Assembly (NCBI GenBank): GCA_030690165.1 | Contig: JAUYHF010000007.1 | Location: 131,420-195,419 of the forward strand | Length of the DNA stretch: 64,000 nucleotides | DNA from: Deltaproteobacteria bacterium | Lineage (GTDB): Bacteria > Desulfobacterota > GWC2-55-46 > UBA9637 | Direction: 5' to 3' | In this document: positions 6,171 through 36,714 of the stretch, piece by piece | How positions within the stretch are numbered: the first letter of the stretch is position 1 | Layout of the letters: each line of letters opens with the position of its first letter | Translations under genes and position numbers: made by a program | Notes under the pieces: model-generated | Told to the model about the DNA's origin: nothing | The model's database searches: none | The model's input: the letters and a program-made list of their open reading frames with translations, nothing else

Positions 6171-6185
6171 AAACCGGAGGTTTTT

Positions 6186-6608
6186 ATGGAAGGTTTGGCA
6201 AAAGAGGCAGACAGGTGGTTTAGGCAGGCAGAGAATGATCTGAAGTCAGCAGGATGGAGCCAGCAGGGCGGTTTTTACGCGCATGCGTGTTTCTGGGCTC
6301 AACAAGGTGCTGCAAAGACGCTGCGGGCATTCCTGTTCATGCAAAAGGAGGATGCAAGGGAGACTCGTTCTGTCAGCGAACTCCTTGAAAGGTGCCTTAC
6401 ATACGATGAAGACTTTAAGGCAATTGTTGAATCCGGCAGCAGATTAGATATATATTACAAGACAAGCCGGTATCCTGACAGCCTTCCAGGCGGCATACCT
6501 GCCGAGATTATATCTGCCAGAGATTCCAAAGAGGCGATAAAGATCGCATCGGATATTTTTGCCCTTGTGGAGGAAAAGAGAAAGACGTATATTCCGGAAG
6601 TGATGTGA
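6186..6608 (+). CDS. HEPN domain protein, solo (no nucleotidyltransferase partner)
   Basis: 140 aa helical protein with the HEPN-family RYP signature (YYKTSRYPDSLPGG); own RBS GGAGG at 6176-6180; a position expected to be His is Arg (TRSV). Confidence 0.65.
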   Translation: MEGLAKEADRWFRQAENDLKSAGWSQQGGFYAHACFWAQQGAAKTLRAFLFMQKEDARETRSVSELLERCLTYDEDFKAIVESGSRLDIYYKTSRYPDSLPGGIPAEIISARDSKEAIKIASDIFALVEEKRKTYIPEVM

Positions 6609-6611
6609 AAC

Positions 6612-6699
6612 AGAGTCAAAGATTCAAAGAGTCATAGAGTCAAAATTTTGCTGCTGTTTCAATTACTCTGACTCTGCGACCCTCTGACTCTTTGACTCT
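6612..6699. repeat. octamer-unit repeat array; right terminal inverted repeat of the HEPN cassette (33-bp IR at 6612-6644)
   Basis: 6612-6644 AGAGTCAAAGATTCAAAGAGTCATAGAGTCAAA is the reverse complement of 6138-6170; a second inverted array at 6664-6699. Confidence 0.75.
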
Positions 6700-9278: not shown

Positions 9279-10622
9279 ATGAAAATTTTAATCATTGACG
9301 ACGAAGATTCCATGCGCCACATGCTTTCCATAATCCTGAAAAAGGAAGGCTATGATGCGGTTTCTGCAGAAAGCGGCCGGCAGGCAATTAAGATGCTGGA
9401 GAAGGAAGATTTTGATTTTATACTCTGCGATATAAGGATGCCGGAGATGAACGGGATGGAATTTCTAAAAAGCCATCAGCTATCAGCTATCAGCCATCAG
9501 CCTGTGGTCATTATGATGTCCGCTTACGGCGCCATTGACACAGCAATCGAGTGCATGAAACTCGGCGCATACGATTATATTTCAAAGCCATTTAAGACAG
9601 ATGAGATTATACTTACATTAAAAAAGGCAGAGGAGAGAGAAAGGCTTAAACGGGAAAACACAAGATTTAAACATATTGCCGAGCAAGAATATGACCTCAA
9701 GAATATTATCACAGAAGATAAACAACTACTTGAAATATTTAAACTTATAAAGAAGGTGGCAGACTATAATACCACTGTCTTAATCACGGGAGAAAGTGGT
9801 ACCGGAAAAGAGCTCATAGCAAGGGCTATCCATTATCATGGTAAAAGAAAGGATAAGCTCTTTGTTGCTGTAAACTGTGGCGCGATTCCAGCAATGCTTC
9901 TTGAGAGCGAGCTCTTCGGTCATGTCAAAGGCGCATTTACTGATGCTGTAAGAAATAAGCCGGGTCTTTTTGAAGAGGCAGATGCAGGGACTATGTTTTT
10001 AGATGAGATAGGCGAGCTTCCAAAGGAGCTTCAGGTAAAACTTTTAAGGGTGATTCAGGAGGGTGAAATAAGAAGGGTTGGCGATTCTAAATCTAAAAAA
10101 ATAGATGTTAGGATTATAGCCGCAACTGCCAGAGACCTGTCAGAAGAAATCAAGAAAGGCAGTTTCAGGGAAGACCTCTTTTACCGCCTGAATGTTGTAA
10201 ACATAAATCTGCCGCCGCTGCGGGAGAGAAAGGGAGATATACCAACCCTTGCCTGGCATTTTTTAAAAATATACTCTGATAAATTCGGCAAGCCGCTAAA
10301 AGGCATAGATAAAGAGGCGATGGATGCCATTTCAAGCTATCAATGGCCCGGGAATGTAAGAGAATTGGAGAATGTGATGGAGAGGGCAGTGATACTTGAA
10401 GACGCTGATGTAATAACACAGAAGAGCCTTCCGTTTTTTAAGACACCAGCCCCCGGTCCCCAGCCCCCGGGTCTTTCTATAAAGAAGGCGGAAGAGGTTG
10501 TTGAAAAAGAGCTTATAAAAAAAGCCCTTGACGCAACAGGCGGCAACAAGACCAAGGCAGCGGAGCTTTTAGAGATTAGCCACAGGGCGCTTTTGTATAA
10601 GATAAAGGGGTATGGGTTGTAA
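9279..10622 (+). CDS. sigma-54-dependent response regulator, NtrC family, PilR-like
   Basis: Receiver domain (DIRMPEMNG), AAA+ sigma-54 interaction domain (GESGTGKE, GAFTDA, ESELFGH), C-terminal Fis-type HTH; in-frame heptamer array 9473-9502 within the receiver domain. Confidence 0.85.
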   Translation: MKILIIDDEDSMRHMLSIILKKEGYDAVSAESGRQAIKMLEKEDFDFILCDIRMPEMNGMEFLKSHQLSAISHQPVVIMMSAYGAIDTAIECMKLGAYDYISKPFKTDEIILTLKKAEERERLKRENTRFKHIAEQEYDLKNIITEDKQLLEIFKLIKKVADYNTTVLITGESGTGKELIARAIHYHGKRKDKLFVAVNCGAIPAMLLESELFGHVKGAFTDAVRNKPGLFEEADAGTMFLDEIGELPKELQVKLLRVIQEGEIRRVGDSKSKKIDVRIIAATARDLSEEIKKGSFREDLFYRLNVVNINLPPLRERKGDIPTLAWHFLKIYSDKFGKPLKGIDKEAMDAISSYQWPGNVRELENVMERAVILEDADVITQKSLPFFKTPAPGPQPPGLSIKKAEEVVEKELIKKALDATGGNKTKAAELLEISHRALLYKIKGYGL

Positions 10623-12744: not shown

Positions 12745-14304
12745 ATGGATATTAAGAGTTATCAAGATTTAGAAGTATGGCAGAAGGCAATGGATTTAGT
12801 CATGGAGTGTTACCAAATGACAAAAACTTTTCCTAAAAGTGAAACCTATGGAATAGTCAGTCAATTACAGCGCGCGGCCGTATCTATTCCAGCCAATATT
12901 GCTGAAGGGAGAAGTCGTCAACATACAAAGGAGTTTATCCAACACCTATCTATAGCATATGGGTCGCTTGCAGAATTAGAAACTCATATTCTGCTTGCTG
13001 AACGTCTGAATTATATAGAGGAAGAACAGGTAAAGGGGATTATGTCACAGGCAGCAGAACTTGGTCGAATGTTTAATGGGTTGCAAAAATCTTTAAGGAA
13101 AAGGGTTCAGGGTTCAGAAAGCAATTCTCTTATATCCGATCCCCGACCCCTGATCCCTGACCCCTGTAACAAAGGTTTTTCTCTTGTTGAACTCTTAATA
13201 GCAATGGTTATTGCCTCTGTTGTGGGGTTGGCAGGGATTTCCATATTCTCATCCAGCAACTGGTCGTATAAGACGCAGGAGGATGTAACAGAGGCGCAAC
13301 AGAATGTAAGGGTTGCCACGGACAGGCTTACAAAGGACATAAGGATGGCTGGTTATGGCCTGCCTGACCCGCCGTTTTCGCTCTCCTTCACCGGTCTTCC
13401 AACCACATTTGTCGGTCAATCCGGCGGCAACATAACCTTGACTTCACCGATTACGGTCACAACCAGCGGCGGAGCAGGCGCCCCTGATAGTTTGACCATC
13501 CTTGGGATTGGGTATGAAGTTGGGACATTGGACACCACTACAGCGGTTGTTAATTGCGTCAATGGTATTCAGGCAAATATTAGCGGAGCTAACTGCATCC
13601 GACTCAGTGCCACTGCGAGCGTCCCTGCGGCTGATACAATTGATAGATTTTTCCCCGGGGGGGCGTTTAACAGTAATAGAATGCATATCAGCCTTGGAGG
13701 GGCAAAATACATAGCGCTTGCCGCGGCAGGCCAGACCGGTCAGGCTACCAGAACATTAGCATTGGGAAGCCCATCTACCCTTGATAGAGACTATCCTGAC
13801 GGCACGTCCGTTTATATCGTACAGGCAGTTCAATATACGATAGTATCGGATACTTCTATTGCAGGATGTTCAAGTTCAAATCCGTGTTTGATAAGTTTGG
13901 ATGCTACTGGACTCCGGGGAATGAACGGGGGAGCGCCTTCCAGACAACTCCTTGCTGAAAATATAGAGGACATTCAGTTTGCATACGGCATAGACGCAAA
14001 CCCAAGGGACAAGAAGATAGACGATACAGACGGGGATGGCTCGTTCGAGGGTCTGGATTATATATTCGCCGAGGCGGGCGATACCTTATCAGATCCGTCA
14101 AGCATAATAGTTGTTCGGGCAACTGTTGTGGGAAGGACAAGGAATACAGATATTAAAGGGCAGACTGGTTTTAAGGCGCAGTGTTTCGAAGACCGCCCTG
14201 TTGATGCCGGCACTACTAACTGCACAGGCGCGGCATCCGATGGTTACAGGCGAAGGATATTGACAAAGGTTATAAAGATAAGAAATCCTAAGACAGGGGC
14301 GTAA
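12745..14304 (+). CDS. pilW: single ORF: N-terminal four-helix-bundle protein (23S rRNA intervening-sequence protein / Avd-like family) fused in-frame to PilW-like minor pilin
   Basis: Residues 1-120 (SYQDLEVWQKAMDL ... PKSETYGIVSQLQRAAVSIPANIAEG ... YGSLAELETHILLAERL) match the four-helix-bundle family; after a repeat-encoded linker comes the prepilin motif G/FSLVELLIAMVIASVVG and a PilW-like body; no stop codon between the two parts. Confidence 0.6.
   Translation: MDIKSYQDLEVWQKAMDLVMECYQMTKTFPKSETYGIVSQLQRAAVSIPANIAEGRSRQHTKEFIQHLSIAYGSLAELETHILLAERLNYIEEEQVKGIMSQAAELGRMFNGLQKSLRKRVQGSESNSLISDPRPLIPDPCNKGFSLVELLIAMVIASVVGLAGISIFSSSNWSYKTQEDVTEAQQNVRVATDRLTKDIRMAGYGLPDPPFSLSFTGLPTTFVGQSGGNITLTSPITVTTSGGAGAPDSLTILGIGYEVGTLDTTTAVVNCVNGIQANISGANCIRLSATASVPAADTIDRFFPGGAFNSNRMHISLGGAKYIALAAAGQTGQATRTLALGSPSTLDRDYPDGTSVYIVQAVQYTIVSDTSIAGCSSSNPCLISLDATGLRGMNGGAPSRQLLAENIEDIQFAYGIDANPRDKKIDDTDGDGSFEGLDYIFAEAGDTLSDPSSIIVVRATVVGRTRNTDIKGQTGFKAQCFEDRPVDAGTTNCTGAASDGYRRRILTKVIKIRNPKTGA
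13141..13159. repeat. right 19-bp inverted repeat flanking the four-helix-bundle gene, inside the ORF
   Basis: CCCCGACCCCTGATCCCTG, encodes part of the linker DPRPLIPDP. Confidence 0.7.
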
Positions 14305-14354
14305 AAGACAGTGGTCAGTGGCCAGTGGTCAGTGATCAGAAAAAGAGGTTCAAT

Positions 14355-14903
14355 ATGAAGATACTAAATAATGAAAATGGCGCAATCCTTATCACCATGC
14401 TCCTTCTTATGGTTATCGTAACCCTTCTTGGCGTGATTGCCATAAATACATCAACCATAGATATCCAGATAACAGGGCATTCAAAAAGGACATCGCTTGC
14501 CCTTCAGGGGGCTGATGCAGGGATTGATTTAGGCATACCGATTATTGAGAGCACTTTGGCTATGGGACAATTAAGCACATCCAGCGCAACAGTCTCTACT
14601 GCTATTACTTTTCCATCTGGTTCAGGAACTACTGCGAGTCTTAATGCAGCGGATACAGTAACCCTTGGCACAGAAATAACAGGTGGGACAAACTATCATA
14701 CTGACACACCTTCGTCAGGAACAGACTTATCCATCACCAATCTAAACGGGGTTGGGGTCAATGTGGATATAGACAGGCTATATTCCTATGCGCTTCCAGG
14801 CGGCTCGCTCGAATTTGCGGCTGGGTATGAAGGCGTTGGGGCCGGCGCCGGAGGTGGTGGGGTGGGAATTTTATATAGCATAGATAGTCAGGGGACGATG
14901 TGA
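14355..14903 (+). CDS. pilX: type IV pilus minor pilin PilX-like
   Basis: N-terminus NGAILITMLLLMVIVTLLGVIAINTSTIDIQI typical of PilX; track start GTG 14325 lies inside a heptamer array, ATG 14355 is preferred; flanked by CAGTGGT-type arrays at 14300-14340 and 14905-14940. Confidence 0.65.
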   Translation: MKILNNENGAILITMLLLMVIVTLLGVIAINTSTIDIQITGHSKRTSLALQGADAGIDLGIPIIESTLAMGQLSTSSATVSTAITFPSGSGTTASLNAADTVTLGTEITGGTNYHTDTPSSGTDLSITNLNGVGVNVDIDRLYSYALPGGSLEFAAGYEGVGAGAGGGGVGILYSIDSQGTM

Positions 14904-14957
14904 AAAGACAGTGATCAGTGGTCAGCGGCCAGTGGTCAGAGAGATTAAAAACGGGAG

Positions 14958-18300: not shown

Positions 18301-19945
18301 TAACGCAGGGGTGTATACAGCAGGGGATAATGCAGTTACTACAGATGTAGAGCATGGCAAGTTTGTTCCAAATGCAACCACTGACTGGCCCGGTGTTGTA
18401 ATGGGTTCAGAATTATGGGCATTTATTCCCTATGATAACCTGCCTCATCTAAAGTGGCTTACAGATCCAAATTATACCCATATTTATTACACCGACCTCA
18501 AGCCAAAGGTGACGGATGTAAGGATATTCTGCGACAGCGATGCAAGTTTAACTCCGCCTACCACGCCTAATTGTATTGATGGGCAGACCGGCGTATCTCA
18601 CCCTGGCGGCTGGGGCACTATTCTGATTGCAGGCATGAGGTTTGGCGGAGGGGCGATAACTGCAGATATAAGCGGAACCACCAGGACATTCAGGTCTGCC
18701 TATTATGTCTTTGATATAACGAATCCTGAAAAGAAGCCGAAACTACTCTGGAGGTTTACTGACGCCAACCTCGGTTTTACAACCAGTTATCCCGGCATTA
18801 TCCATATAAACAGCAGTCCTGAGAAGTGGTTTATGGTGGTCGGTTCAGGGCCTGACAATAATGTCCCTGCTGGCACACGGGGCTATGATGGGACAAGCAC
18901 GCAGCAAGGCAGGATATTTGTCGTAAATCTTTTAAACGGGACAGCGGCAATTACATTTACCAATCTTGGAATAAACAATGCCGGCGCCGTCCTTGACGCC
19001 AATACATTCATGGGCGACCCGACTGTAATTGATGGCGATCTGGATTATACAACTGATGTAATTTATATAGGAAGCGCCACTTCTACAAACAGCGGGAAGG
19101 TATTCAGGATAAATACAAATCAGGATGCCAACCCGGCTAATTGGGCGTTATCAACCCTTATAAATCAGGGGAAACCGGTTCTTGTCGGGCCATCTGTGTC
19201 AAAGGACAGCCTTAATAACTTCTGGGTATTCTTTGGAACAGGGAGGTTTTTGGCTAGTGCTGATAAGACCAATTCTGACCCTCAAACCTTCTATGGTATA
19301 AAGGATGCATGTTGGAAAACGAATACGACAACAAGCCCTTGTCCTGCCTCTGCTAACCCATACCTGCAAACCGCTCTTCTTAATTCAAGCAATTTAGCAG
19401 TTTGCACATCCGCGGGCGGCGGGGGGATTTATGATACAAGTTCCGGAACTTGCGCAACCGGCACCCAGGCTTACAGTTCATATACCAACCTTCTTGCAAC
19501 AGTAAGGGCAGGCTCAGGTTGGTATATAAATCTGGTTGACCCAACGACTCCGAGTGAGAGGGTTATTGCCAGAAGCGTTGTCCTTGGAGGTGTAGTCATT
19601 TTTACCGCCTTTACACCCAGCAGTGATATATGCGCCATGTTAGGGGATAGCAACCTATATGCCCTATACTATGAGACAGGGACAGCCTATAATAAACCTG
19701 TGATAGGCTATAGCGGGACTACTGTACTGAGAAGCAAAAGCCTTGGCAAGGGGATGCCAACTACAGTAGGTATTGCTGTGGGCAGTAAAACAAAGGGTTA
19801 TATCCAGACTTCTACAGGCACAATAGTAGAGGTGGAAACAGAACCCGCCCTTGATGTGAGGAGCGGACCAGCAGGCTGGAGGGAAAAAGAGGGCGGCGGC
19901 GGGACAGTGGATATAGAGGAGATATATAAGCATATAGTTAAGTAG
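15365..19945 (+). CDS. pilY1: PilY1-like type IV pilus tip-associated adhesin
   Basis: 1526 aa; signal peptide; N-terminal vWA-like LVLDNSGSM; large C-terminal region; position after pilX. Confidence 0.8.
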   Translation: MKRLSIITILLGMILWTPLTCKVMAQTMSDYTSTPPFISTSIQPNVLLVLDNSGSMNDEAYATTYDPTQFSSGQYYGLFDATKYYQYTNNGRWEIFPVTDTDGDGIQTDETLPSASATIANPIASGNLLNWATMSRISVAKKLLIGGKASPRSPAGAVTVKLFGETTWGFLKTFDNTSSANLIAPFTGNYRYNVSSTANFSMVPVVAGTDTVYTSPNANVSIPAGWTVFPAATNAWEDVDDTISPTISNDADTTYIQAQGTASPAMFGYDYAGAKTGTITNVGVRVVAKSNCSSTLLRRTRGVLRIGGVDYDSGFTAIATSYPATAYSFNWATNPATGAAWQWSDIKDIGNPSGNLEGFGIRPNQSNAGCYHRATQVYLVVTSGTPSGGPYNIIIDQGMTPASGIIDNLSSDARFGLAYYANSSNGGRVQEYVGFGSAVNMITSISGLAPSTWTPLGETLYEMIRHFRQDAPFYANAPADYATGNVFNDPYYYRYSTLAGSGLTDQYVPCAKSFILLLTDGESTQDITMDASIKGPPGFSWGKGVNTDGSSTSSAAGQPRLGGTNNGQTYTSSGTDYLVDAAYWARSTDARPGACTTTPTSWQQCIPGTQNVVIYPVFMFGSGSTLLKDAAIYGGFEDMNGDGKPGPDLREYLRDSNGDGSVTAADDPITYFEGDDGFALEASITNAIASIMKRSASGTSVSILATSQEGEGALYQAYYYPEKIMDDGTKRSWLGYCRGMFLDSFGNLREDSDADSTLIFKNDKIIRMRLDTSTNEVKADLYNDVSPEDGDADPATLNADGSKIDTVNNTVAIDAVATLWEAGEKLAKDITTRNIYTWVDLDNDGVVDNGDFGVSPLPSGEAYPFVSSSATALRQYIRAADDPESTNIINFVAGNNVTGYRNRCIPVTGATTETGCSGATDRVWALGDIVYSTPTTVAGPREGYDQIYGIASYTNFRNLYRDRRNIVYVGANDGMLHAFNAGVYTAGDNAVTTDVEHGKFVPNATTDWPGVVMGSELWAFIPYDNLPHLKWLTDPNYTHIYYTDLKPKVTDVRIFCDSDASLTPPTTPNCIDGQTGVSHPGGWGTILIAGMRFGGGAITADISGTTRTFRSAYYVFDITNPEKKPKLLWRFTDANLGFTTSYPGIIHINSSPEKWFMVVGSGPDNNVPAGTRGYDGTSTQQGRIFVVNLLNGTAAITFTNLGINNAGAVLDANTFMGDPTVIDGDLDYTTDVIYIGSATSTNSGKVFRINTNQDANPANWALSTLINQGKPVLVGPSVSKDSLNNFWVFFGTGRFLASADKTNSDPQTFYGIKDACWKTNTTTSPCPASANPYLQTALLNSSNLAVCTSAGGGGIYDTSSGTCATGTQAYSSYTNLLATVRAGSGWYINLVDPTTPSERVIARSVVLGGVVIFTAFTPSSDICAMLGDSNLYALYYETGTAYNKPVIGYSGTTVLRSKSLGKGMPTTVGIAVGSKTKGYIQTSTGTIVEVETEPALDVRSGPAGWREKEGGGGTVDIEEIYKHIVK

Positions 19946-20003
19946 AAAGACAGGGGTCAGGGGTCGGAAAGACAGTGGTCAGGGGTCGGAAAGACAGTGG
20001 TCA

Positions 20004-20915
20004 GTGATTTTACTGATCCCTGACCCTCGATCCCTGTATCTATGGAGGGTATTTTTGGAAAAGAAGATATGGGAAGAAAGACGAAAGAAGAAGATTGTTC
20101 TGCCAAAGGAACCCGAATCTGAGAAAAAAGATTATAGAAGATGGACGAAGTATATTATTGCCGCTGTCTTTATTATCCTTTTATTTACCCTCTTAAGGGG
20201 CAAGAAAGAAAAGATAGAGATTCCAGGGCCGGAACAGGAATCAGGGGTCAGGGGTCAGGGGTCAGAAAAACAGGGGGCAGGGGTCGTGGCTCAGAGGTCA
20301 GTGAGTAGTCCAGTCGTTGAGCTGCCGCTGCCGCCTCCGCCTAAAAAAAATACCCCCCCGGAAGTCCTGTTAATAAAGTTAAGCCCAAAGATTGTTTACC
20401 AGGGAACCAAGATAAAGGCAGAGGTTTCAGGCAAGGATGCTGATGAGGATGATGAGGTTACCTATTTTTATGAGTGGCGGAGAAACGATACTGTCTTGCC
20501 TGATAATATCCAGCCGGAGATTGATACAAAGGATTTTAAGAAGGGCGAGCTTATAACCTTGTTTGTTACGCCGTTTGACGGCAAAGACAAGGGGAAGACC
20601 AGATTTTCCAGGACAATTGTTATTGTCAACAGGCCGCCTGAGATAATATCATTCCCGCCTGTGTCTGTTTCCAACGGGAAATATCTGTACGAGGTCAAGG
20701 CAAATGACCCGGATGGCGATGCGCTTACTTATTCTCTTGAAAATGCCCCGTCCGGCATGATAATTGATCCTGCAACAGGCATAATCCGATGGGATATCCC
20801 TGTTACGGCAGATTTAAAATCGGTTACTACCTACAATATAAAGATTGTGGTAAGCGATGGCGATGCCACGGCCTTTCAAGGGTTTTCCATGACCCCTGAT
20901 GTGGAAATTAAATAA
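20004..20915 (+). CDS. membrane-anchored protein with two Ig-like/cadherin-like domains
   Basis: TM segment WTKYIIAAVFIILLFTLL, repeat-encoded linker [13 protein letters not shown], then DADEDDEVTYFYEW and DPDGDALTYSLENAPSGMIIDPATGIIRWDIP; start uncertain (GTG 20004 or TTG near 20055). Confidence 0.5.
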   Translation: MILLIPDPRSLYLWRVFLEKKIWEERRKKKIVLPKEPESEKKDYRRWTKYIIAAVFIILLFTLLRGKKEKIEIPGPEQESGVRGQGSEKQGAGVVAQRSVSSPVVELPLPPPPKKNTPPEVLLIKLSPKIVYQGTKIKAEVSGKDADEDDEVTYFYEWRRNDTVLPDNIQPEIDTKDFKKGELITLFVTPFDGKDKGKTRFSRTIVIVNRPPEIISFPPVSVSNGKYLYEVKANDPDGDALTYSLENAPSGMIIDPATGIIRWDIPVTADLKSVTTYNIKIVVSDGDATAFQGFSMTPDVEIK

Positions 20916-22295: not shown

Positions 22296-22861
22296 TAAGG
22301 ATAAACCTTTTACCAGTAAGGCTTGCAAAAAAGAAGGAGTCAATAAGGCAGCAGGCATCTGTGGCAGGTCTGAGCATTGTGCTGCTCTTTATAGTTCTTG
22401 GGGTTTTTTACTTTTCCATTACTAAGAGTATAGCTGAACTCAACGTCTCCATATCCGTCGAAGAAAAGAATATCGCCCAGTTTGATAAAGAGATAGGGGA
22501 ATTAAAAAATGTTGAAAGCGAAAAGAAGGCGATTTTGGAAAAGCTGAATATAGTCAAACAGCTTGAGATAGACAAACGACGGCACTTAAAGATATTTTCT
22601 GACATTACAGCCGCAATCCCTGAAAAACTGTGGATTGACTCTCTGAAGGATTCCGGACAAACTGTTACGCTGATTGGTTTTGCCGGGGCTGATGATATAG
22701 TGGCGGATTTTATGCGCCAGCTTGAAAAAACCCTTGTTTCATGGAAGGTTGAGCTTGAGGTTATAAATCAGGTGGAAAAGGAAAAAATAAAACTGGCGGG
22801 TTTTACTATCAGGCTTGAAGCGCCAAAAGGGCCGCCGCCTGCGGCCAAACCCAAGGCATAG
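22292..22861 (+). CDS. pilN: type IV pilus assembly protein PilN
   Basis: N-terminal RINLLP motif followed by a TM helix; overlaps pilM stop. Confidence 0.85.
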   Translation: MIRINLLPVRLAKKKESIRQQASVAGLSIVLLFIVLGVFYFSITKSIAELNVSISVEEKNIAQFDKEIGELKNVESEKKAILEKLNIVKQLEIDKRRHLKIFSDITAAIPEKLWIDSLKDSGQTVTLIGFAGADDIVADFMRQLEKTLVSWKVELEVINQVEKEKIKLAGFTIRLEAPKGPPPAAKPKA

Positions 22862-22917
22862 TTGTAGCTCAAGGCTTTAGCCTTGATAAACCTTCAAACC
22901 TGAAGGTTTGAGCTACA
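22862..22917. repeat. 56-bp structured palindromic element, copy 2 (between pilN and pilO)
   Basis: TTGTAGCTCAAGGCTTTAGCCTTGATAAACCTTCAAACCTGAAGGTTTGAGCTACAA; paralog of 9188-9243. Confidence 0.6.
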
Positions 22918-22940
22918 AATAGACCTTCTAAAGGAGTCTT

Positions 22941-23528
22941 GTGCCAAAGTTTGATGTAGATATAATACTTAAATTGTCCCTTTCTAAAAGGCTTTTGATA
23001 CTTGGGGCTGTCGTGCTTGTTATAACAGGGGTTTTTTATTATTTTTTATACGGCGCAAAATTAAATGAGAAAATCGCCTTAAGCGCAAAATTAGAGGGGT
23101 TTAAGAATACAGTTTCGGAAAAACAGAGGTTAGCCGCCAACCTTCCCAAATTAAAAAAAGAGATTGAGGATCTGAACAACCAGTTCAAACTGGCGCTTGA
23201 GGCCCTGCCCAACGAAAAAGAGATCGCCAATCTTCTCGAAAGCATATCTGATGCGGCTAAGACCGCAAGACTGGATATATTGACCTTTAAGCCGGGAAAG
23301 GAAACCCCAAAGGGTTTTTATGCCGAAGTGACGATAGATATGAAGGTGGAGGGCGGATACAACAGCGTTATTTCCTTCTTTGAAAAGGTTGCAGGGATGC
23401 CAAGGATAGTTAATATAAACGGCTTAAATATAACAAGCGGTAAAGAGGTCAGGGGTGATATTATGATGTCAGCTACTTTTGCAGCGACGACATTTAAGTT
23501 TCTGCCTCAGCCGGAGGCGAAGAAATAA
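22941..23528 (+). CDS. pilO: type IV pilus assembly protein PilO
   Basis: N-terminal TM helix, coiled-coil region, position and size (195 aa). Confidence 0.85.
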   Translation: MPKFDVDIILKLSLSKRLLILGAVVLVITGVFYYFLYGAKLNEKIALSAKLEGFKNTVSEKQRLAANLPKLKKEIEDLNNQFKLALEALPNEKEIANLLESISDAAKTARLDILTFKPGKETPKGFYAEVTIDMKVEGGYNSVISFFEKVAGMPRIVNINGLNITSGKEVRGDIMMSATFAATTFKFLPQPEAKK

Positions 23529-23529
23529 T

Positions 23530-24120
23530 ATGGGTAATTTACAAGTCACCAGTTATAAGTCACCAGTCACCAGTCACAAGACTAAAAACTCAAGTCTGGT
23601 GACTTTGTGTCTGGCGACCTTGTGTCTGGCGACCTTGTGTGTCGGTTGCCAGCAAGGCGCGCCGCCACAGCCCCCTGCGGCAGAGGTAAAAAAAGAGGCT
23701 CCGAAACCGGAGACTGTGCCTATTGCTGGAGAGGCAAAAAAAGAAGAGAAGGCTCCGCCTAAAGCGGATGAGGTAAATCCGCAGAGAAATCCTTTTAAAA
23801 CATTTATTGTTAAAGCAACCGAGAGGCCGTCAGTTGTTGCGCCAAAGACGCCTTTACAGAGGTATGAACTGGAGCAGCTAAAATTAGTGGCAATAATGTG
23901 GGGCATTAACAGCCCCGCAGCCATGGTGGAGACACCGGACGGCAAAGGCTATTCAATAAAAAAAGGATACCTTATCGGGAACAGGGAAGGAAGGGTTAAG
24001 CGGATTGAAAAGGACAGGGTGATAGTGGAGGAGAGGTTTACAGAGGCCCGCGGCGAGGTTGTAACCAACGAGTTTGAAATAAAACTGCCGCTGCCCAAAG
24101 GAGAGGAGGAGTTAAGATGA
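23530..24120 (+). CDS. pilP: type IV pilus assembly lipoprotein PilP
   Basis: Position between pilO and pilQ; Cys-containing signal region (LCVGC); Pro/Ala-rich linker; N-terminal 40 codons are built from inverted heptamer/15-mer arrays, so start is uncertain. Confidence 0.7.
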   Translation: MGNLQVTSYKSPVTSHKTKNSSLVTLCLATLCLATLCVGCQQGAPPQPPAAEVKKEAPKPETVPIAGEAKKEEKAPPKADEVNPQRNPFKTFIVKATERPSVVAPKTPLQRYELEQLKLVAIMWGINSPAAMVETPDGKGYSIKKGYLIGNREGRVKRIEKDRVIVEERFTEARGEVVTNEFEIKLPLPKGEEELR

Positions 24121-27002
24121 AAAATAAAAATGTAAAATGCAAAATGCAAAATACAAAAGGTTTCCTTCCATATTTTATATTCTGCCTGCTGCTTACTATA
24201 TTTTTTACAGGTTGCGCGCCTACTAAGTCGCAGATAAAGAGTGGAGAGGGAGTGGAAAAGGCAGCCATTGAGAAGATTTCGGTTGTTGGAGGGGGGAGGG
24301 AGATATTGATAGAGGCTTCAGGGCCTATAACCTACACTGCCTTTAAGCTTTCTGACCCGGCAAGGCTGGTGCTGGATATTCCAGGGGCAGATATAGAAAA
24401 GGTAAAGGCCCCGATGGATGTTAATAATGAGTTTATAAACAGGATTGTTGTCGCAAGCTACGGGGAGGAGGGAATGGCGCCCATTTCCAGAGTGGAAATA
24501 GGGTTAAAGGAGAGGGTAGCCAGTGATGTAAAGCTCGCAGAAGGCAGTATTCTGGTGGCTTTGAATTATGAAGTTATTCCCCAGCATGAGGCTGAGACAC
24601 CTGTTGTGGTTGAGCCCCAAGTGGCAGAGGAAAAGGCCGCCGAGGCGCCGCCTTTAACAGAGCCCCTCCAGCAGGAGATTGCAAAAAAAGAAGAAGCCAT
24701 AAAGGCGGCTGTGGAAGAGGCCGGCCCTGCCCTTGCTGAGGCTGAAAAGAAAGAGATAAAAAAGGCTGACAAATTGTTGAAGATAGAGACGAGGAAGGAA
24801 AAGAACCGCACAATAATAAAGGTGATTGGCAACGGGCCGATAGGCGATTTTAATGCCTTTACAATGGATAAGCCTGCGCCGTCAAGGATTGTTGTGGATG
24901 TATGGAATGTTAAGAGTTCAATTCCGGGAGACGGTCTTGCTGTAAGCAGTCCTTATGTAAAGAAGGTAAGGGTAGGTGAACATCCGGATAAGGTGAGGCT
25001 CGTGTTTGATTCAGGCCAGAAGAATGTGCCGCCCTATACAATAGAGAGGGTTGACAACTCCCTTGTAATAACTGTCGGCAGGATTGATGTAAAGAAGCCT
25101 GAAACAGCCGCAGTAGTTGCTCCGGTAACTGCGCCGCAAGAGCCTCCTGTGGAAACAGCACAGCAGCCTTCGGCAGCCGTGCCCGCTCCTGAACCTGTAA
25201 AGGCCGATTATGCAGAAATCAAGGCGGTTGATTTCAAGCAGCTTGCGGATAAGGCAAGGCTTATTATAACTGCGTCAAAGAAGATAGAATACAGATTGTT
25301 AAAATTACCGGATGAAACAGGACTGGCGCTGGATATTAAGGATGCTATAATACCTGACGAACTCAAACGGACACTCGACGCCTCTGACCTTAACACGCCA
25401 GTGGCCAGCATAAGCTCATTCCAGGCGACTACTGAGTCTGCAAAGGATGTCCGTATACTTGTTAAATTAAAAGAAAAGGCTATTTATGATATTTCACAGG
25501 AAGGCGAAAGAATACAAATAGATTTTCCGCTGCTCGCAGCGGCGCAGGCGGTTCCAAAGATGGCAGAGATAAAAAGTCAGGAGTCAGAGCTCAGGGGCCT
25601 GCCCCCGAATGTTTCTATCGGGGGTCAGGAGATAAAAGAAACAAAGCTGGCAGAAGATGCTATAAACAAGGAACAGGCATCAGGCTATACAGGACGCAAG
25701 ATTTCTCTGGACTTTAAGGATGCTGATATAAGTAATATTTTGAGATTGATGGCAGAGGTCAGCAATCTGAATATTATTGCGGGCGAGGATGTTAAAGGCA
25801 AGGTTTCGTTAAGATTGATAGATGTTCCATGGGATCAGGCATTCGAGATCATATTAAAAACAAACGGTCTTGGCAAGGTTCAGGAAGGGAATGTAGTAAG
25901 GATTTTGCCCCTTGCTAAGATAAAACAGGAGAGTGAAGATGCGCTTGCCTCTAAAAAGGCAAAGGAAAAACTTGAAGACCTTGAGATAAAATTGCTGTCT
26001 GTCAACTACGCAACTGCCAGCGCTTTAGAATCCCAGGTCAAAGGCTTATTAAGCGATAGGGGGACTGTTACAGTAGAGGCAAGGACGAATACGCTTATTA
26101 TTAAAGATATCCCTGCCAATATAGCAAAGGCAGTGGACATGGCAAAGAAATTGGATACGCCGACGCCGCAGGTCTTGATAGAGGCAAGGATCGTAGAGGC
26201 GCAGAGCAGTTTTGCAAGGGACCTCGGTGTGCAGTGGGGCGCTGCTACTCTTACAACAAGCAAAAATAAGTTTAGCAGCGGGTTTGGCAGCGCTTCGGCT
26301 ACCCCATCGCCCACCCTTACCCCCACTAGTACCACTACCACCCCCACTACCCCCAGTTTTATCAGCTCAGGGGGGCAGTTCTCATCGCAGCCTAATTTTG
26401 CGGTAAGCCTTCCTGCGGCGGGCGCTGCAGGGACATTGGGCGCAATGGGTTTTTCGTTCGGTAAACTTATAGGCGACCCGTTTCTTTTAGACCTCCGCAT
26501 ATCAGCCGGCGAAAAAAATGGTTTGACAAAGACCATATCAAGGCCGAGGATTACCACACTGAATAATAAGGAGGCCAAAATATCTCAAGGCGACTCAGTG
26601 CCATTTGAAACAACATCTTCTTCTGGCACACAAACCTCTTTTATTGATGCAACACTTGAACTCATTGTTACTCCGCATATAACCCCGGACGGCAGCGTGA
26701 GCATGAAAATCAAGGCCAGCAGGAACTCAATAGGCTCTTTCAGATCTGCTGCCGGTACGCCGAGCATAAGCAAAAAAGAGGCGTCTACAGAGATAATTGT
26801 AAAAAGCGGGGAGACAGCGGTTATCGGCGGCATTGTGATAGAGGATAAGTCAGATACCGGCAGCGGCATACCATGGCTTAAGGATATCCCTATACTCGGC
26901 TGGCTCTTTAAAAACAAATCAACATCAGAAAGCCAGACAGAGCTCCTGATATTTATTACGCCGAATATTGTAAGCGGCGAAGTGGAGTTGTCGCCAAGTT
27001 AA
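24117..27002 (+). CDS. pilQ: type IV pilus secretin PilQ
   Basis: 961 aa; signal peptide; repeated N-terminal beta domains; C-terminal secretin domain (NTLIIKDIPANIAKAVDMAKKLD ... VLIEARIVEA ... LLIFITP). Confidence 0.9.
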   Translation: MKNKNVKCKMQNTKGFLPYFIFCLLLTIFFTGCAPTKSQIKSGEGVEKAAIEKISVVGGGREILIEASGPITYTAFKLSDPARLVLDIPGADIEKVKAPMDVNNEFINRIVVASYGEEGMAPISRVEIGLKERVASDVKLAEGSILVALNYEVIPQHEAETPVVVEPQVAEEKAAEAPPLTEPLQQEIAKKEEAIKAAVEEAGPALAEAEKKEIKKADKLLKIETRKEKNRTIIKVIGNGPIGDFNAFTMDKPAPSRIVVDVWNVKSSIPGDGLAVSSPYVKKVRVGEHPDKVRLVFDSGQKNVPPYTIERVDNSLVITVGRIDVKKPETAAVVAPVTAPQEPPVETAQQPSAAVPAPEPVKADYAEIKAVDFKQLADKARLIITASKKIEYRLLKLPDETGLALDIKDAIIPDELKRTLDASDLNTPVASISSFQATTESAKDVRILVKLKEKAIYDISQEGERIQIDFPLLAAAQAVPKMAEIKSQESELRGLPPNVSIGGQEIKETKLAEDAINKEQASGYTGRKISLDFKDADISNILRLMAEVSNLNIIAGEDVKGKVSLRLIDVPWDQAFEIILKTNGLGKVQEGNVVRILPLAKIKQESEDALASKKAKEKLEDLEIKLLSVNYATASALESQVKGLLSDRGTVTVEARTNTLIIKDIPANIAKAVDMAKKLDTPTPQVLIEARIVEAQSSFARDLGVQWGAATLTTSKNKFSSGFGSASATPSPTLTPTSTTTTPTTPSFISSGGQFSSQPNFAVSLPAAGAAGTLGAMGFSFGKLIGDPFLLDLRISAGEKNGLTKTISRPRITTLNNKEAKISQGDSVPFETTSSSGTQTSFIDATLELIVTPHITPDGSVSMKIKASRNSIGSFRSAAGTPSISKKEASTEIIVKSGETAVIGGIVIEDKSDTGSGIPWLKDIPILGWLFKNKSTSESQTELLIFITPNIVSGEVELSPS

Positions 27003-27392: not shown

Positions 27393-28628
27393 ATGCTGAG
27401 ATACTTAACAGCAGGTGAATCACACGGTAAATATTTGACTGCCATTCTGGAAGGCGCGCCGGCAAATCTTAATTTGGCTGCGGATGATATAAATAAAGAA
27501 CTAAGCCGCAGGCAGATTGGCTACGGCCGCGGCGGCAGAATGGCTATTGAAAAAGATGAAGCAGAGATTACATCGGGGGTAAGGTTTGGCAAGACCATAG
27601 GTTCGCCTATTGCTATGGTTATAAAAAATAGAGATTGGGAGAATTGGAAAGAGGTTATGAATACAGGGGTCAGGGGTCAGGGGTCAGGGGTCAAAGAGAT
27701 TACCCATCCAAGGCCGGGCCATGCGGATCTGGCAGGCGCCTTGAAATATGGCCAGTATGATATTCGCAATATTCTTGAACGTTCCAGCGCAAGGGAAACC
27801 GCGGCGCGGGTTGCTGTTGGCGCAGTATGTAAAAGATTTCTGGATGAGATTGGGATAAAAGTGATGAGTTGGGTGGTGGATATAGCAGGGGTCAGGGGTC
27901 AGGGGTCAGGGGTCAGAGAGGAGAATGATATAGAAGCAATTTTTAAACTGGCAGAAGCATCTGATGTGCGTTGTCCTGATAAAAAGATTGCAGAAAAAAT
28001 GAGAAAGGCGATAGATAGGGCAAGAAAAAACGGCGACAGCCTTGGCGGGATATTTGAGGTTGCTGTAACCGGCGTTCCTCCGGGTCTTGGAAGCCATGTC
28101 CAGTGGGATAGAAAATTAGATGGGAATCTGGCAAGGGCGCTTATGAGCATTCAGGCCATAAAAGGGGTTGAGGCGGGTATAGGGTTTGAAGCGGCTGAGA
28201 GATTTGGATCAGAGGTGCATGATGAGATATTTTATAAAATCTCCCCTGACCCCTCTTTGCCAAAGAGGGGAAAATCATCTCCCCCTTTGGAAAAGGGGGA
28301 TAAAGGGGGATTTTACAGAAAAACCAACAATGCCGGCGGCATAGAGGGAGGCATGAGCAACGGCGAACCGATTATACTCCGGGCTGCGATGAAACCGATA
28401 CCAACATTATATAAACCGCTTCGGTCAATAGATATAAAAACAAAAAAGCAGTTTCAGGCAAGTGTTGAAAGGTCGGATATATGCGCTGTGCCTGCTGCTT
28501 CAGTGGTTGGCGAGGCAGTTGTTGCCTTTGAGATAGCCAATGCCTTTATAGATAAATTTGGCGGCGATTCTATCTATGAGGTAAAAAGGAATTATAAGGG
28601 GTATCTGGAGTATTTGAGGAAGTTTTAA
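27393..28628 (+). CDS. aroC: chorismate synthase
   Basis: [30 protein letters not shown] motifs; 411 aa, about 50 aa longer than typical because of three repeat-encoded in-frame insertions. Confidence 0.9.
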
Positions 28629-29175: not shown

Positions 29176-30282
29176 ATGGGCATACTACATATGGAACGCA
29201 TTACTGTAAATCTTGGTGAGCGAAGCTATCCAATCTATATCGGGAGAAATAATCTCGATATGGTGGGAGAGTTGATGAAGCAGAAAGGTCTTAATGGCAA
29301 AGCAGCCTGTATTACAAATCCTACGGTAGGGAAACTTTATGGCAACAGGGCGCTTGATAGTCTTGGCAAGGCAGGTTTTGAGGTTTTCAGAATAGATATC
29401 CCTGACGGCGAAGAGTACAAAAGCCTTGAATGGCTCTCGCATATATATGATAAACTTATTGAATATAAGATGGAGAGGCAATCCCCTATTGTTGCCCTTG
29501 GCGGCGGCGTTGTAGGGGATATTGCAGGTTTTGCGGCAGCTACATACTTAAGGGGTGTGCCGTATATTCAGGTTCCAACGACACTCCTGTCCCAGGTTGA
29601 CAGTTCTGTCGGCGGCAAGACTGGGGTGAATCATCCAAAGGGCAAAAACCTTATAGGCGCATTCTATCAGCCAAAGATGGCGCTTTTAGATGTGGATGTT
29701 CTTAAGACGCTTGGAGAGAGGGATATAAAGGCGGGCTTGGCTGAAGTTATTAAATATGGTATTATCAAGGACGCCGGTTTCTTCTCGTTTTTAGAGGAAA
29801 ATTATGCGGATGTTCTCAAACTGGGAGATAGCCTGCTGCATGTTGTAAAGGTGTCATGCGGGATAAAGGCGCGGGTGGTTGAAGAGGATGAGAGGGAGGC
29901 GGGCATAAGGTCAATACTTAACTTTGGACATACATTCGGCCATGCAGTAGAGACCGTGACCGACTATAAGGAGTTAAGGCACGGCGAGGCAGTTGCCATC
30001 GGCATGGCTGCTGCCGCAAGGCTCTCTTTTAAACTCGGCCTGTGCAGTAAAGATGTTTGCGAAAGGATAGAAAGATTGGTATCAAAGATTGGTCTTCCCA
30101 TAAAGCTATCAGCTGTCAGCCGTCAGCTATCAGCTAAAGAATTATTACAGGCTATGGAGATGGATAAAAAGGCGGCTGGAGGAAATATAAAGTTTGTGAT
30201 GGTGGAAGATATTGGCAAGGTAATATTTAAACAGATGGGAAGAGCGGATTTTTCCATTGACTTATCAGAGATTTTAAACTAA
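29176..30282 (+). CDS. aroB: 3-dehydroquinate synthase
   Basis: GGGVVGDIAGFAAATYLRGVPYIQVPTTLLSQVDSSVGGKTGVN; alternative start ATG 29191; in-frame heptamer array 30105-30135. Confidence 0.88.
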   Translation: MGILHMERITVNLGERSYPIYIGRNNLDMVGELMKQKGLNGKAACITNPTVGKLYGNRALDSLGKAGFEVFRIDIPDGEEYKSLEWLSHIYDKLIEYKMERQSPIVALGGGVVGDIAGFAAATYLRGVPYIQVPTTLLSQVDSSVGGKTGVNHPKGKNLIGAFYQPKMALLDVDVLKTLGERDIKAGLAEVIKYGIIKDAGFFSFLEENYADVLKLGDSLLHVVKVSCGIKARVVEEDEREAGIRSILNFGHTFGHAVETVTDYKELRHGEAVAIGMAAAARLSFKLGLCSKDVCERIERLVSKIGLPIKLSAVSRQLSAKELLQAMEMDKKAAGGNIKFVMVEDIGKVIFKQMGRADFSIDLSEILN

Positions 30283-32457: not shown

Positions 32458-32462
32458 ATACA

Positions 32463-32548
32463 GGCTATAGGCAAGAGGCGATAGGCTATAGGTAAAAGAA
32501 AAAGACAAGAATATTTTTTCCATTGCCTATAGCCCATCGCCTATAACC
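32463..32548. repeat. inverted heptamer arrays (GGCTATA units) forming a hairpin between accB and accC
   Basis: GGCTATAGGCAAGAGGCGATAGGCTATAGG at 32463-32492 and its inverted counterpart CCTATAGCCCATCGCCTATAACC at 32526-32548; related array at 48975-49004. Confidence 0.7.
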
Positions 32549-34746: not shown

Positions 34747-36714
34747 ATGGATGAGAAAAGCAAAATAATAGATAAGGCTCAAAAGCTGCTGCAGAAAGGA
34801 TACCTTGACAAGGCCATTGCCGAATACAAAAAGGTGGTCGAAAAGTATCCAAAAGACACGACTATTCGTTTGCGGGTAGGAGACCTTTATGTAAAGGTTG
34901 GCAAGAAGGATGAGGCCATAAAGGAATATGGCGAGGTGGCCAAAATACATACAAAGGGAGGATTCAACCTAAAGGCCATTGCTGTTTACAAGCAGATCCT
35001 TAAATTAGATGAAGGACAGTTGGAGATATATTTTAAGCTGTCAGACCTTTACACAAACCAAAGGCTGATAGCAGATGCTGTAGCGTCATTAAGTGTTCTG
35101 GTCAGTTTTTATGAAAAGAAGGGAAAGGCTGATGAGGCAATCGATGTTTTAAAAAAGATGATAACAGTCGACCCTCAGAATGTCGGGGTAAGGCTCAAGC
35201 TTGCTGACTATTATAAGACGAAAGGGTTTACAAATGATGCGCTTGCGGAATATGTCGTGGCATTTAATAGTCTTCTTAAGGACGGCAAAATAGATAAGGC
35301 TGAAAAGCTTTACGAAGGGTTATATGCTGATAACAGGAGAAATATAAATATAATAGAAGGGCTTGTGGAGGTATACAGGATTAAGGGTGACAAAACCCAT
35401 CTTATAAGATATTGGAAAGAACTGGCAAACCTGTATAAGGAAAAAGGCGAGGCTGAAAAGAGAAAAGAGATTTATAAGAAGATACTTGAGATTGCCCCGG
35501 AAGATAATGATGCCCTGAATGCCCTCGGCATAAAGCCGGCAGTAGAGGAGCCTGCTCAAAAAGCTGCACCTTCAAAAGTTCCTGCAGAAGATAAGACCGC
35601 AAAAGAACCGCTCATAGCATGGCCTGAATTTACCAAAGACCTCTTTGAAGAGCCTCGGGAAAAACCTGAACAGATAGCAGCGCCTGCCCCCTTGAAAGAG
35701 GAACCTTTAATATCATGGGATGAAATGATAGAGGTAAGTGAGGAGGCGGGGAGAGGGGCTGCGCCTCGCGAGCCGGAGACCAGCGTAAAGCAGCCGGTTG
35801 AAGAGGCGCCCATTATAGAGATGCCGGAGATTCAGGCGGCTGAAATAACAGAAGAAGAGCCTCTCATAGAGATGCCGGAGGTTCATGCAGCAGAAACAAA
35901 AGAAGATGCCCAGCGCATATCACCTATACCTTCTGAAGAAAAGGCCCGTGCAGAAGAGATTGCAGGAGAAATAGCTCCGGAATACATTGAACCTGCGGAA
36001 GAACTGCCCCAAGTGGAAGAGGCAGAAGTTTTAGAGGCAGTTGAAGAAGTTGCGCCAAAGCATGGTTTAGAGGGATTGGGACTGGAAGGGTTTTTGCCTG
36101 AAGGGGCAACTATAATAGGAGAGATGGAGTCCCAGCCTGATGAAGAGGGATATGTTGACCTTTCTTCAGAATTAGGGCTGGAAGAGGCCCTGGATTTTTT
36201 GACTGAATCCTGGGCTCCTGACGAAAAGGGTAAGGAGACCTTTACGGAATTTAAACACGGCGTGGAAAAACAGTTGAGCAGAGAGGATACTGAAACCCAT
36301 TATAACCTTGGCATTGCATATATGGAGATGGAACTCTTTGATGATGCCATGAGGGAATTCAAGATTGCTTTGAAAAACCCTGTATTTGAATTTGATTGTT
36401 ATGCCAGGCTTGGTTTGAGCCTTAGGACAAAAGGAGATTACGAGGAGGCTATAGGCAATTTTTTAAAAGGGCTTAAAGTTAGCGGAAGGACAGATGAAGA
36501 GCGGAAAGGGATCATGTATGAACTTGGTCTGACCTACGAGGCCGCCTGCCTCACGCATGAGGCGTTGGAGGTCTTTACCTCCGTATTCGAGATGGATGAA
36601 TGGTTTAGAGAGGTTTCTTATAAGATTCAGGAATTAAGAAAAAAGCTGGAAGAAGAAATTGAGGCCGGGGCTATTCCATCAACAGACGATATGATAGAGG
36701 TTGAACTCTTGTGA
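34747..36714 (+). CDS. TPR-repeat protein with central acidic repeat region
   Basis: TPR-like helices at both ends; central Glu/Pro-rich tandem repeats (EEPLIEMPE x2). Confidence 0.55.
   Translation: MDEKSKIIDKAQKLLQKGYLDKAIAEYKKVVEKYPKDTTIRLRVGDLYVKVGKKDEAIKEYGEVAKIHTKGGFNLKAIAVYKQILKLDEGQLEIYFKLSDLYTNQRLIADAVASLSVLVSFYEKKGKADEAIDVLKKMITVDPQNVGVRLKLADYYKTKGFTNDALAEYVVAFNSLLKDGKIDKAEKLYEGLYADNRRNINIIEGLVEVYRIKGDKTHLIRYWKELANLYKEKGEAEKRKEIYKKILEIAPEDNDALNALGIKPAVEEPAQKAAPSKVPAEDKTAKEPLIAWPEFTKDLFEEPREKPEQIAAPAPLKEEPLISWDEMIEVSEEAGRGAAPREPETSVKQPVEEAPIIEMPEIQAAEITEEEPLIEMPEVHAAETKEDAQRISPIPSEEKARAEEIAGEIAPEYIEPAEELPQVEEAEVLEAVEEVAPKHGLEGLGLEGFLPEGATIIGEMESQPDEEGYVDLSSELGLEEALDFLTESWAPDEKGKETFTEFKHGVEKQLSREDTETHYNLGIAYMEMELFDDAMREFKIALKNPVFEFDCYARLGLSLRTKGDYEEAIGNFLKGLKVSGRTDEERKGIMYELGLTYEAACLTHEALEVFTSVFEMDEWFREVSYKIQELRKKLEEEIEAGAIPSTDDMIEVELL

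Follow-up and report, generated by a model that had tools for sequence, protein, structure and literature searches.

Heptanucleotide simple sequence repeats (SSRs) are over-represented in many bacteria, in which they lie near the stop codons between co-oriented genes and occasionally form inverted pairs; intercistronic hairpins of STRRs (short tandemly repeated repetitive sequences) have also been described (PMC4692102, PMC4679880, PMC2670836). Heptamer repeats have been known for decades in cyanobacteria, Xanthomonas, and Beggiatoaceae without an agreed function or origin. The present study concerns a 64-kb stretch of DNA (the window, whose positions are used as coordinates throughout) from a groundwater metagenome-assembled genome (MAG) titled 'Deltaproteobacteria', and in particular the 5′ end of its pilP gene. 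The same kind of repeat appears to supply, in this unrelated and uncultured lineage, the whole export signal of two pilus-assembly proteins. We consider it reasonably probable that inverted STRR-like heptamer arrays lie inside the pilP frame and are translated as a lipoprotein signal peptide, and that the hairpin they form is mainly a DNA-level legacy.

Cyanobacterial STRRs resemble the pilP arrays in having 7-nt units, short tandem arrays, many dispersed families, and often inverted hairpins between co-transcribed genes. To judge from its title, a 1997 study by Vioque reportedly found STRRs tolerated inside a functional RNase P RNA gene. For the STRR hairpin between hupS and hupL, a role in stability or translational coupling has been proposed, with no established function (PMC2670836; PMC4692102). 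However, the host of the present arrays is a groundwater 'Deltaproteobacteria' MAG and not a heterocystous cyanobacterium, and the heptamers differ. Furthermore, the inverted pair is here located inside a coding frame and would supply the whole signal peptide, a use that we did not find described for STRRs. The heptamers in the window (GTCACCA, CAGGGGT, CAGTGGT, and others) are also distinct from the Calothrix STRR consensus. Because neither the consensus nor a cyanobacterial host was found, we classed the pilP array as STRR-like, not as an STRR proper.

The G-rich heptamers GGGAATC and GGGGA(T/C)T of Xanthomonas and Nostoc (Rehm et al. 2015, PMC4692102) are similar to the CAGGGGT arrays of the window (4.3–4.4 copies), and array starts 4–6 nt past a stop codon are shared. 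In contrast, the GTCACCA array of pilP is not G-rich. A G-quadruplex was rejected at this site, which lacks G-tracts, while it is possible for the CAGGGGT arrays elsewhere in the window. In marine Beggiatoaceae, cyanobacteria, and Bacteroidetes, TAACTGA occurs as direct repeats that adjoin start codons and translate in the reverse orientation to LSVISYQ (MacGregor 2015, PMC4679880). One related pilP locus (L004; L-numbers denote pilP-bearing contigs and P-numbers PilP protein records) has a perfect (TCAGTTA)n 5′ arm at its positions 4001–4038, the reverse of TAACTGA, read as QLSVISYQLSVI and located where the window carries the GTCACCA array. This L004 array translates to the LSVISYQ peptide predicted for the reversed repeat (PMC4679880). 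However, the TAACTGA system is essentially one heptamer in mostly intergenic direct repeats with no predicted structure, whereas the repeats examined here belong to many heptamer families, form inverted pairs, and are probably translated as a signal peptide. The window contains no TAACTGA arrays; TAGCTGA arrays with 2 mismatches were present at the chance level only.

Quasi-palindrome template-switch mutagenesis and slipped-strand mispairing are established mutational mechanisms. Template switching and slippage would explain the shared heptamer family in both arms and unit-sized changes without selection on RNA; however, they are mechanisms and not an element family. In the library searched for literature on heptanucleotide repeats with signal peptides or lipoproteins, we found no inverted-array pair that encodes a complete lipoprotein signal peptide and no clade-wide, family-by-family replacement of signal peptides on a conserved protein.

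The open reading frame (ORF) list and domain matches revealed a pilM-N-O-P-Q operon on the plus strand, encoding PilM_2, PilN, PilO, PilP, and then a Secretin with AMIN domains. Arrays were detected with Tandem Repeats Finder (TRF). The pilO-pilP junction and the 5′ end of pilP contain the following features:

23513–23517, plus strand: Shine-Dalgarno (SD)-like GGAGG within the 3′ end of pilO and 12 nt upstream from the ATG of pilP.
23526–23528, plus strand: stop codon TAA of pilO, 1 nt before the pilP start.
23530–24120, plus strand: pilP coding sequence (196 aa), with Pfam PilP PF04351 at residues 70–186 (E 4.8e-14) and the expected gene order in the pilMNOPQ operon.
23539–23580, plus strand: 5′ arm, a 14-mer/heptamer array (TTACAAGTCACCAG x2.8; GTCACCA-type heptamers x4.9), from TRF, inverted-repeat pairs, and translation.
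23584–23592, plus strand: AAAAACTCA, the apical loop in the predicted hairpin, which AGACT (23579–83) and AGTCT (23593–97) close, from the folds and the inverted pair.
23594–23640, plus strand: 3′ arm, a 15-mer array of GTCTGG(T/C)GAC(T/C)TTGT x3.1 in pilP codons 22–37, from TRF, inverted pairs, and translation.
23638–23649, plus strand: lipobox-like C-V-G-C with Cys40 at TGC 23647–49, followed by the conserved QQ(E)GAPPQPP; the Cys at −3 is atypical.

The initial annotation had described inverted heptamer and 15-mer arrays at the 5′ end of pilP and LATLC repeats that end in a candidate lipobox. Both descriptions were confirmed by sequence, TRF, and inverted-repeat pairing, with the small correction that the ATG is at 23530 and not 23531. 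The 5′ arm corresponds to pilP codons 4–17 and encodes LQVTSYKSPVTSHK, a polar, Lys-containing n-region. Its heptamers are GTCACCA (23545–51, 23559–65, and 23566–72), GTTATAA (23552–58), and GTCACAA (23573–79). TRF reported a period-7 array at 23544–23577 (4.9 copies, 77% matches), with a 14-mer at 23539–23577 as an alternative reading. The period-15 unit at 23594–23640 is GTCTGGCGACCTTGT (3.1 copies, 93% matches), and each 15-mer equals the 14-mer unit in reverse complement with 1 nt added. Arm complementarity is 10/10 between AAGTCACCAG and CTGGTGACTT and 87% between 23566–80 and 23619–33. In a single frame, the 15-mers encode LVTLC-LATLC-LATLC, a hydrophobic h-region that runs into V-G-Cys40 and QQGAPPQPP; the sequence after the 3′ arm is GTGTCGGTTGCCAGC.

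The arrays are most likely translated as the export signal of PilP, as judged from the reading frame and the composition of the N-terminus. Characterized PilP proteins are lipoproteins. The window PilP has a putative n-region with a net charge of +3, an uncharged putative h-region of 20 aa, and the lipobox-like CVGC, and Cys40 is invariant in 29/29 aligned PilP homologs. All array-built N-termini showed an n-region of net +1 to +10, an uncharged stretch of 10–30 aa, and a [LFCT][TAVNS][GS]C lipobox. The stop-to-ATG spacing was 1–6 nt in all array-bearing relatives in which the junction was read (n=20), and most of nine relative pilO-pilP junctions had GGGGG or GGAGG at the SD-equivalent site. 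The ATG beside the pilO stop was in frame with the lipobox Cys in the array-bearing sequences read, with the exception of L129.

An alternative suggestion had placed the true start past the hairpin. From codon 1 up to codon 24 of pilP, no further ATG, GTG, or TTG is in frame, and the only candidates in frame downstream are GTG 23599 and TTG 23605, 23620, and 23635. Starts at or past codon 24 lose the Lys-bearing n-region or the whole signal peptide, and GTG 23599 and TTG 23635 have no SD. Because the frame from the pilO-adjacent ATG is kept, a downstream start is unlikely. Related genomes with the same N-terminal sequence and no repeats, which would have spoken against the initial annotation, were not found; the N-termini of relatives differ and follow the same repeat plan.

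The related loci were all from MAGs or metagenome contigs, the MAGs being titled Deltaproteobacteria or Thermodesulfobacteriota, and the closest pilP loci were from groundwater MAGs. They include approximately 20 distinct array-bearing pilP sequences (L002–L009, L046, L047/L050, L049, L051–L070, and L130), the independence of which is partial; we judged them to represent approximately 8–10 heptamer families. In these sequences, the segment from the pilO-adjacent ATG to the lipobox Cys was 90–201 nt and consisted of a purine-rich heptamer array, encoding the charged n-region, followed by its complement, encoding the hydrophobic h-region. The heptamers themselves varied, and arm pairs included GCAAGAA/TTCTTGC, CAGTTAT/xxCACTG, CAGTGGT/CCACTG, GTCAGGR/TTCTGTA, and GTAGACA/TGTCTAC. 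Among the retrieved homologs, residue identity at a lag of 7 was 0.213 in the peptides before the Cys, whereas it was 0.07–0.09 at other lags and 0.075 in the mature part. Array density is a lineage trait: the window, L002–L009, L013, L014, and L029 had 4–15 period-7 arrays per 10 kb, and most other pilP loci had none. Nine array-free orthologs had N-terminal segments of 21–46 aa, six of which were ordinary signal peptides of 21–28 aa. However, L013 and L014 are array-rich and yet have plain pilP signal peptides.

A comparable arrangement was found at the next gene of the operon, the start of which overlaps the pilP stop (ATGA) and the 5′ end of which occupies 24117–24215:

24127–24158, plus strand: pilQ 5′ array, AAAATGC x4.6, in codons 4–14, followed by an h-region and the lipobox FTGC.

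Since an h-region and this lipobox come after the array, the AMIN-domain secretin PilQ looks like a lipoprotein. Most pilQ orthologs read from array-rich relatives also have array-built signal peptides with other heptamers; L004 has a 3′-side array only. In L002, the GTCAC family is common to pilP and pilQ. At the ORF level, arrays and hydrophobic N-termini were associated (25/32 versus 68/153), which is only indicative because spurious ORFs and repeated orthologs are included.

The signal peptides have turned over far more than the protein that they precede. Within clusters of 90% identity, mature PilP sequences were 90–100% identical, whereas the signal peptides were 22–35% identical (another heptamer family) or differed by 7 residues. 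A difference of 7 residues is equal to three heptamers, as between P0013 and P0091, the mature parts of which are 100% identical. Array copy numbers were kept in L049 and L046 (93 and 89% identical to the window, respectively), while L047/L050 are shorter by 21 nt in the heptamers and by 15 nt in the 15-mers, the segments of L002 and L130 exceed that of the window by 6 nt, and L057 and L059 differ by 21 nt in copy number. L129 corresponds to L056 minus two heptamers (14 nt of the 3′ arm; L129 300–470), which places the upstream ATG out of frame; the deletion may represent a naturally occurring off variant or else an error of assembly. The same 14-nt gap is present in L053 together with a 2-nt insertion in the loop, and the frame is restored. 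P0105 was rejected as a frameshift variant; read from the upstream ATG, it stays in frame, and only its annotated start differs.

A long mRNA stem-loop over the first 40 codons of pilP had been anticipated in the initial annotation, and folding supports it. RNA folding of 23515–23665 predicted one long imperfect stem spanning codons 2–40 (−56.5 kcal/mol; z −4.5; 0/200 shuffles as good); z-scores against dinucleotide shuffles are inflated in periodic sequences, and we therefore added a chimera control. Native arm pairs folded at −0.332 kcal/mol/nt versus −0.234 kcal/mol/nt for cross-locus chimeras (p = 5e-7). The few chimeras that matched native folding were mostly, though not only, of the same heptamer family. 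Across loci, fold z-scores were −0.25 to −8.2 in 20 array-bearing segments versus −1.2 to +1.5 in the nine array-free orthologs. The 120-nt segment from the ATG to Cys40 gave a predicted −46.9 kcal/mol (z −4.8) as sense RNA, whereas its antisense RNA folded better (−49.5, z −6.3); folded as DNA, it formed a modest stem (−19.9, z −2.5).

Other functions of the hairpin were also considered. A promoter and terminator scan of the plus strand at 22800–24400 revealed none near the hairpin and no GC-rich stem with a U-tract; because the scan came up empty there, an attenuator or terminator was rejected. GTCACCA does not fit the X XXY YYZ pattern of a slippery site, and programmed −1 frameshifting by a heptamer and a downstream hairpin was therefore rejected. 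An Rfam covariance scan of 23300–24300 returned only a chance-level miRNA match (20.9 bits versus a gathering score of 83).

Period-7 arrays are abundant throughout the window. TRF detected 24, compared with a mean of 0.95 and a maximum of 3 in 20 dinucleotide shuffles; period-8 arrays numbered 8 versus a shuffle mean of 1.55, and period-15 arrays 5 versus 0.1. At least 10 heptamer families are present and the majority of the arrays are intergenic. Seven arrays (6091, 6612, 12661, 14309, 14909, 19951, and 32462) start 4–6 nt past the stop of a co-oriented upstream ORF, and purine-first inverted array pairs occupy non-coding junctions at 6091–6124/6140–6171, 6612–6644/6666–6699, 19945–20036, and 32462–32545. 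GTCACCA-GTCACCA (up to 2 mismatches) was found nowhere else in the 64-kb window than at pilP, and the other hairpins are built from other units. Because the window contains no other GTCACCA array, the pilP array is not a dispersed copy of that type, and a repetitive extragenic palindromic (REP) sequence, bacterial interspersed mosaic element (BIME), or miniature inverted-repeat transposable element (MITE) was rejected for it.

The analysis showed that the arrays exist and complement each other, that they are predicted to fold, that the pattern extends genome-wide and clade-wide, and that the frame is maintained. We propose that the arrays arose as follows. A repeat process would act genome-wide in this lineage and prefer sites just downstream of stop codons. 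Inverted duplication, template switching, and slippage may generate both arms and homogenize them together at the DNA level, after which the arms would decay within the limits set by coding. Since pilP starts 1 nt past the pilO stop, the array lies inside pilP. Where the next gene starts at once, the element may survive only in a part of the protein that needs composition and not sequence. A signal peptide suits the array because a purine-first inverted repeat reads as a hydrophilic stretch rich in K, R, Q, and S and then as a hydrophobic stretch rich in L, F, C, and V. Translation would start at ATG 23530, the A/C/G-rich 5′ array would yield the polar, positively charged n-region, and its pyrimidine-rich complement would yield the h-region. 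The 3′ arm was regularized to a 15-nt unit and, therefore, one reading frame (LATLC) was fixed. Cys40 would be the lipidation site after Sec/Lsp processing. Ribosomes that reach the pilO stop and terminate there probably melt the stem at its base, which makes coupling plausible. The outcome would be a very fast, lineage-specific replacement of signal peptides on an otherwise conserved PilP.

Several points weigh against this explanation. The n-region is unusually long, with the lipobox Cys at position 40, no K/R in the first 7 residues, and a Cys at −3. The classical PROSITE-type lipoprotein rule would fail for these reasons. In L129, the 14-nt deletion moves the upstream ATG out of frame. The National Center for Biotechnology Information (NCBI) record P0002 and the L004 record P0036 call starts downstream of the arrays. 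Strict arm complementarity at the same site in many lineages could equally reflect selection on the hairpin. Furthermore, although arm mismatches showed no sign of RNA-specific selection (G.U type, 45; A.C type, 38; p = 0.51; transversions, 100), coding constraints confound this wobble test, the basis of which is the 83 transition mismatches.

We regard as unlikely, but worth weighing, that a selected RNA hairpin controls pilP through coupling to the pilO stop, setting the PilO:PilP stoichiometry, or through the stability or processing of the mRNA, and that the coding of the signal peptide is secondary. The hairpin begins at +4 of pilP, the stop-start spacing is short in every relative with the junction read, the same plan recurs at the pilP/pilQ junction, and transcript stability or translational coupling has been proposed for the hupS-hupL STRR hairpins (PMC2670836). 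Moreover, the arms are specifically complementary in each lineage despite complete sequence turnover, and the window AUG is mostly paired in the ensemble (probability unpaired, 0.26). However, the corresponding value was 0.95 in L049, which is 93% identical, and 0.6–0.95 in most relatives; that of the SD region was 0.4–0.8. Across array-bearing sequences, the SD and AUG values ranged between 0.04 and 0.95, and occlusion is not conserved. Array-free orthologs have no hairpin (z about 0) and, therefore, pilP does not need one; the plain signal peptides of L013 and L014 also argue against a requirement. Identical architectures occur at non-coding junctions and beside unrelated genes. Because the mismatches do not favor G.U over A.C, the antisense RNA folds no worse than the sense RNA, and the SD and AUG are not consistently occluded, we read the hairpin as a DNA-level legacy left by STRR-like repeats and co-opted as a lipoprotein signal peptide. 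The proposal in the initial annotation that the hairpin regulates pilP translation is unproven and has been weakened by these results, as well as by the presence of the same architecture at pilQ.

The unit-sized changes in the arrays raise another interpretation, to which we assign only a small probability: a contingency locus in which heptamer slippage switches PilP or type IV pili on and off, possibly allowing an escape from pilus-specific phages. The CTCTT repeats of Neisseria opa are a precedent, being non-multiple-of-3 tandem repeats in the leader-peptide-coding 5′ region of an envelope protein (PMC3960869). Heptamers are likewise not a multiple of 3 and are present in the leader-coding regions of pilP and pilQ across the clade, and copy number varies among near-identical sequences (L057/L059, window/L047, and P0013/P0091), with L129 carrying the upstream ATG out of frame. 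However, the opa tract is a long, perfect pentamer with documented high-frequency frameshift switching and no inverted partner, whereas the pilP tracts are short, imperfect, paired with a complementary array, and part of a genome-wide population that includes housekeeping genes. The window array has only approximately 2.7 perfect heptamer copies, and the 15-mers are frame-neutral. Most arrays are intergenic; others lie in aroC (twice) and a sigma-54 regulator, in which switching would be harmful. Only one of approximately 22 distinct sequences is out of frame, and this could be an assembly error. Far less probable is an untranslated intercistronic hairpin, with PilP starting at TTG 23635 as in the NCBI record P0002 (= MDP2681577.1, 161 aa, MCVGCQQ...). 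With this start, 4 residues would precede the invariant Cys, a signal peptide would be absent, and there is no SD before 23635. Many sister arrays are intergenic hairpins right after stop codons, P0036 is also annotated from downstream of its array, and some relatives (L055) have an internal ATG with an SD-like GGAG/GGGG before the h-region. However, the h-region is inside the 3′ arm in every lineage, the frame of the pilO-adjacent ATG is kept, including through the compensating 2-nt indel in L053, and both residue periodicity and hydropathy are as expected if an n-region and an h-region are translated. The public start calls, at MCVGCQQ... or past the lipobox, remove the signal peptide, and annotated starts seem unreliable where the 5′ end of a gene bears arrays.

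Our favored explanation remains that of arrays translated as the signal peptide, with a hairpin that is mainly a DNA-level legacy. We also consider a stronger version, which we hold as a tentative and somewhat doubtful possibility. In this version, inverted heptamer hairpins generate and repeatedly replace signal peptides, their complementarity is actively maintained, and slippage gives heritable pilus on/off or export variants. Elements that come to lie shortly past a stop would be taken up by the following gene as an entire n-region and h-region. If this were true, the export signals of PilP and PilQ, and possibly of many envelope proteins, would be replaced at rates that exceed those of the mature proteins by orders of magnitude, and arm complementarity would be kept by selection on the RNA or DNA hairpin or by directed conversion.

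As a natural series, the pilP loci present more than 20 signal peptides that are interchangeable and precede a passenger protein that is nearly constant. They may also serve as a test bed for distinguishing hairpins that are selected RNA structures from those that are mutational by-products. The division of an inverted repeat into a hydrophilic arm and a hydrophobic arm suggests a simple rule for the recruitment of non-coding repeats into proteins. Moreover, automatic annotation appears to mis-call starts at array loci, as in P0002 and P0036, and to truncate the signal peptides.

Several other arrays in the window are located within or beside recognizable genes. The chorismate synthase gene aroC (27393–28628) contains two in-frame CAGGGGT arrays of 4.3–4.4 copies (27664–27693 and 27886–27916), which encode GVRGQGSGV. 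The loops at which they lie are variable relative to the Aquifex enzyme 1q1l, and relatives such as P0005 have this peptide as the PilP n-region. Each of the two arrays has four G-tracts, which would allow a G-quadruplex. Within a sigma-54 response regulator gene (9279–10622), the receiver domain carries an in-frame AGCCATC x4.6 array (9471–9502) that encodes HQLSAISHQ. Arrays of AGCCATC/AGCTATC (4.6–4.7 copies) are thus in frame in conserved genes, the second being at 30104–30136 in the 3-dehydroquinate synthase gene (29176–30282).

A small gene encoding a HEPN domain (6186–6608) lies between argJ and the prepilin peptidase gene and has inverted octamer-array hairpins on both sides. The 5′ hairpin (6091–6171) consists of AGAGTCAG x4 and TGACTCTA x4, and the 3′ hairpin (6612–6699) of AGAGTCAA x4 and CTCTGACT x4. 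The gene looks like an inserted cassette bracketed by repeat hairpins. Similarly, near-identical CAGTGGT x4.4 arrays (14309–14339 and 14909–14939) bracket a minor-pilin-like gene (ATG 14355 to 14903). Both start 5–6 nt past the upstream stop, behind the motif AAAGACAG, which was also found at 12655 and 19946.

The ORF at 12745–14304 joins a 23S_rRNA_IVP/bAvd-like four-helix-bundle domain (aa 7–112) to a PilW-type minor pilin with the N-methylation motif KGFSLVELLI (aa 142–163). The join runs through an inverted heptamer pair (AGGGTTC... / GATCCCC GACCCCT...), with arrays at 13102–13166. No ATG, GTG, or TTG was seen between these arrays and the prepilin cleavage motif, and the pilin is either a fusion with a 141-aa leader or has an unconventional start. 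The bAvd-like domain raised the possibility of diversity-generating retroelement targeting. This was rejected for pilP, with no search made for a reverse transcriptase, because its variation is a unit-wise turnover of N-terminal repeats and not A-specific substitution in a variable region at the C terminus. A longer tandem repeat of 51 nt (35800–35906; 2.1 copies, 80% matches) is located inside the ORF at 34747–36714.

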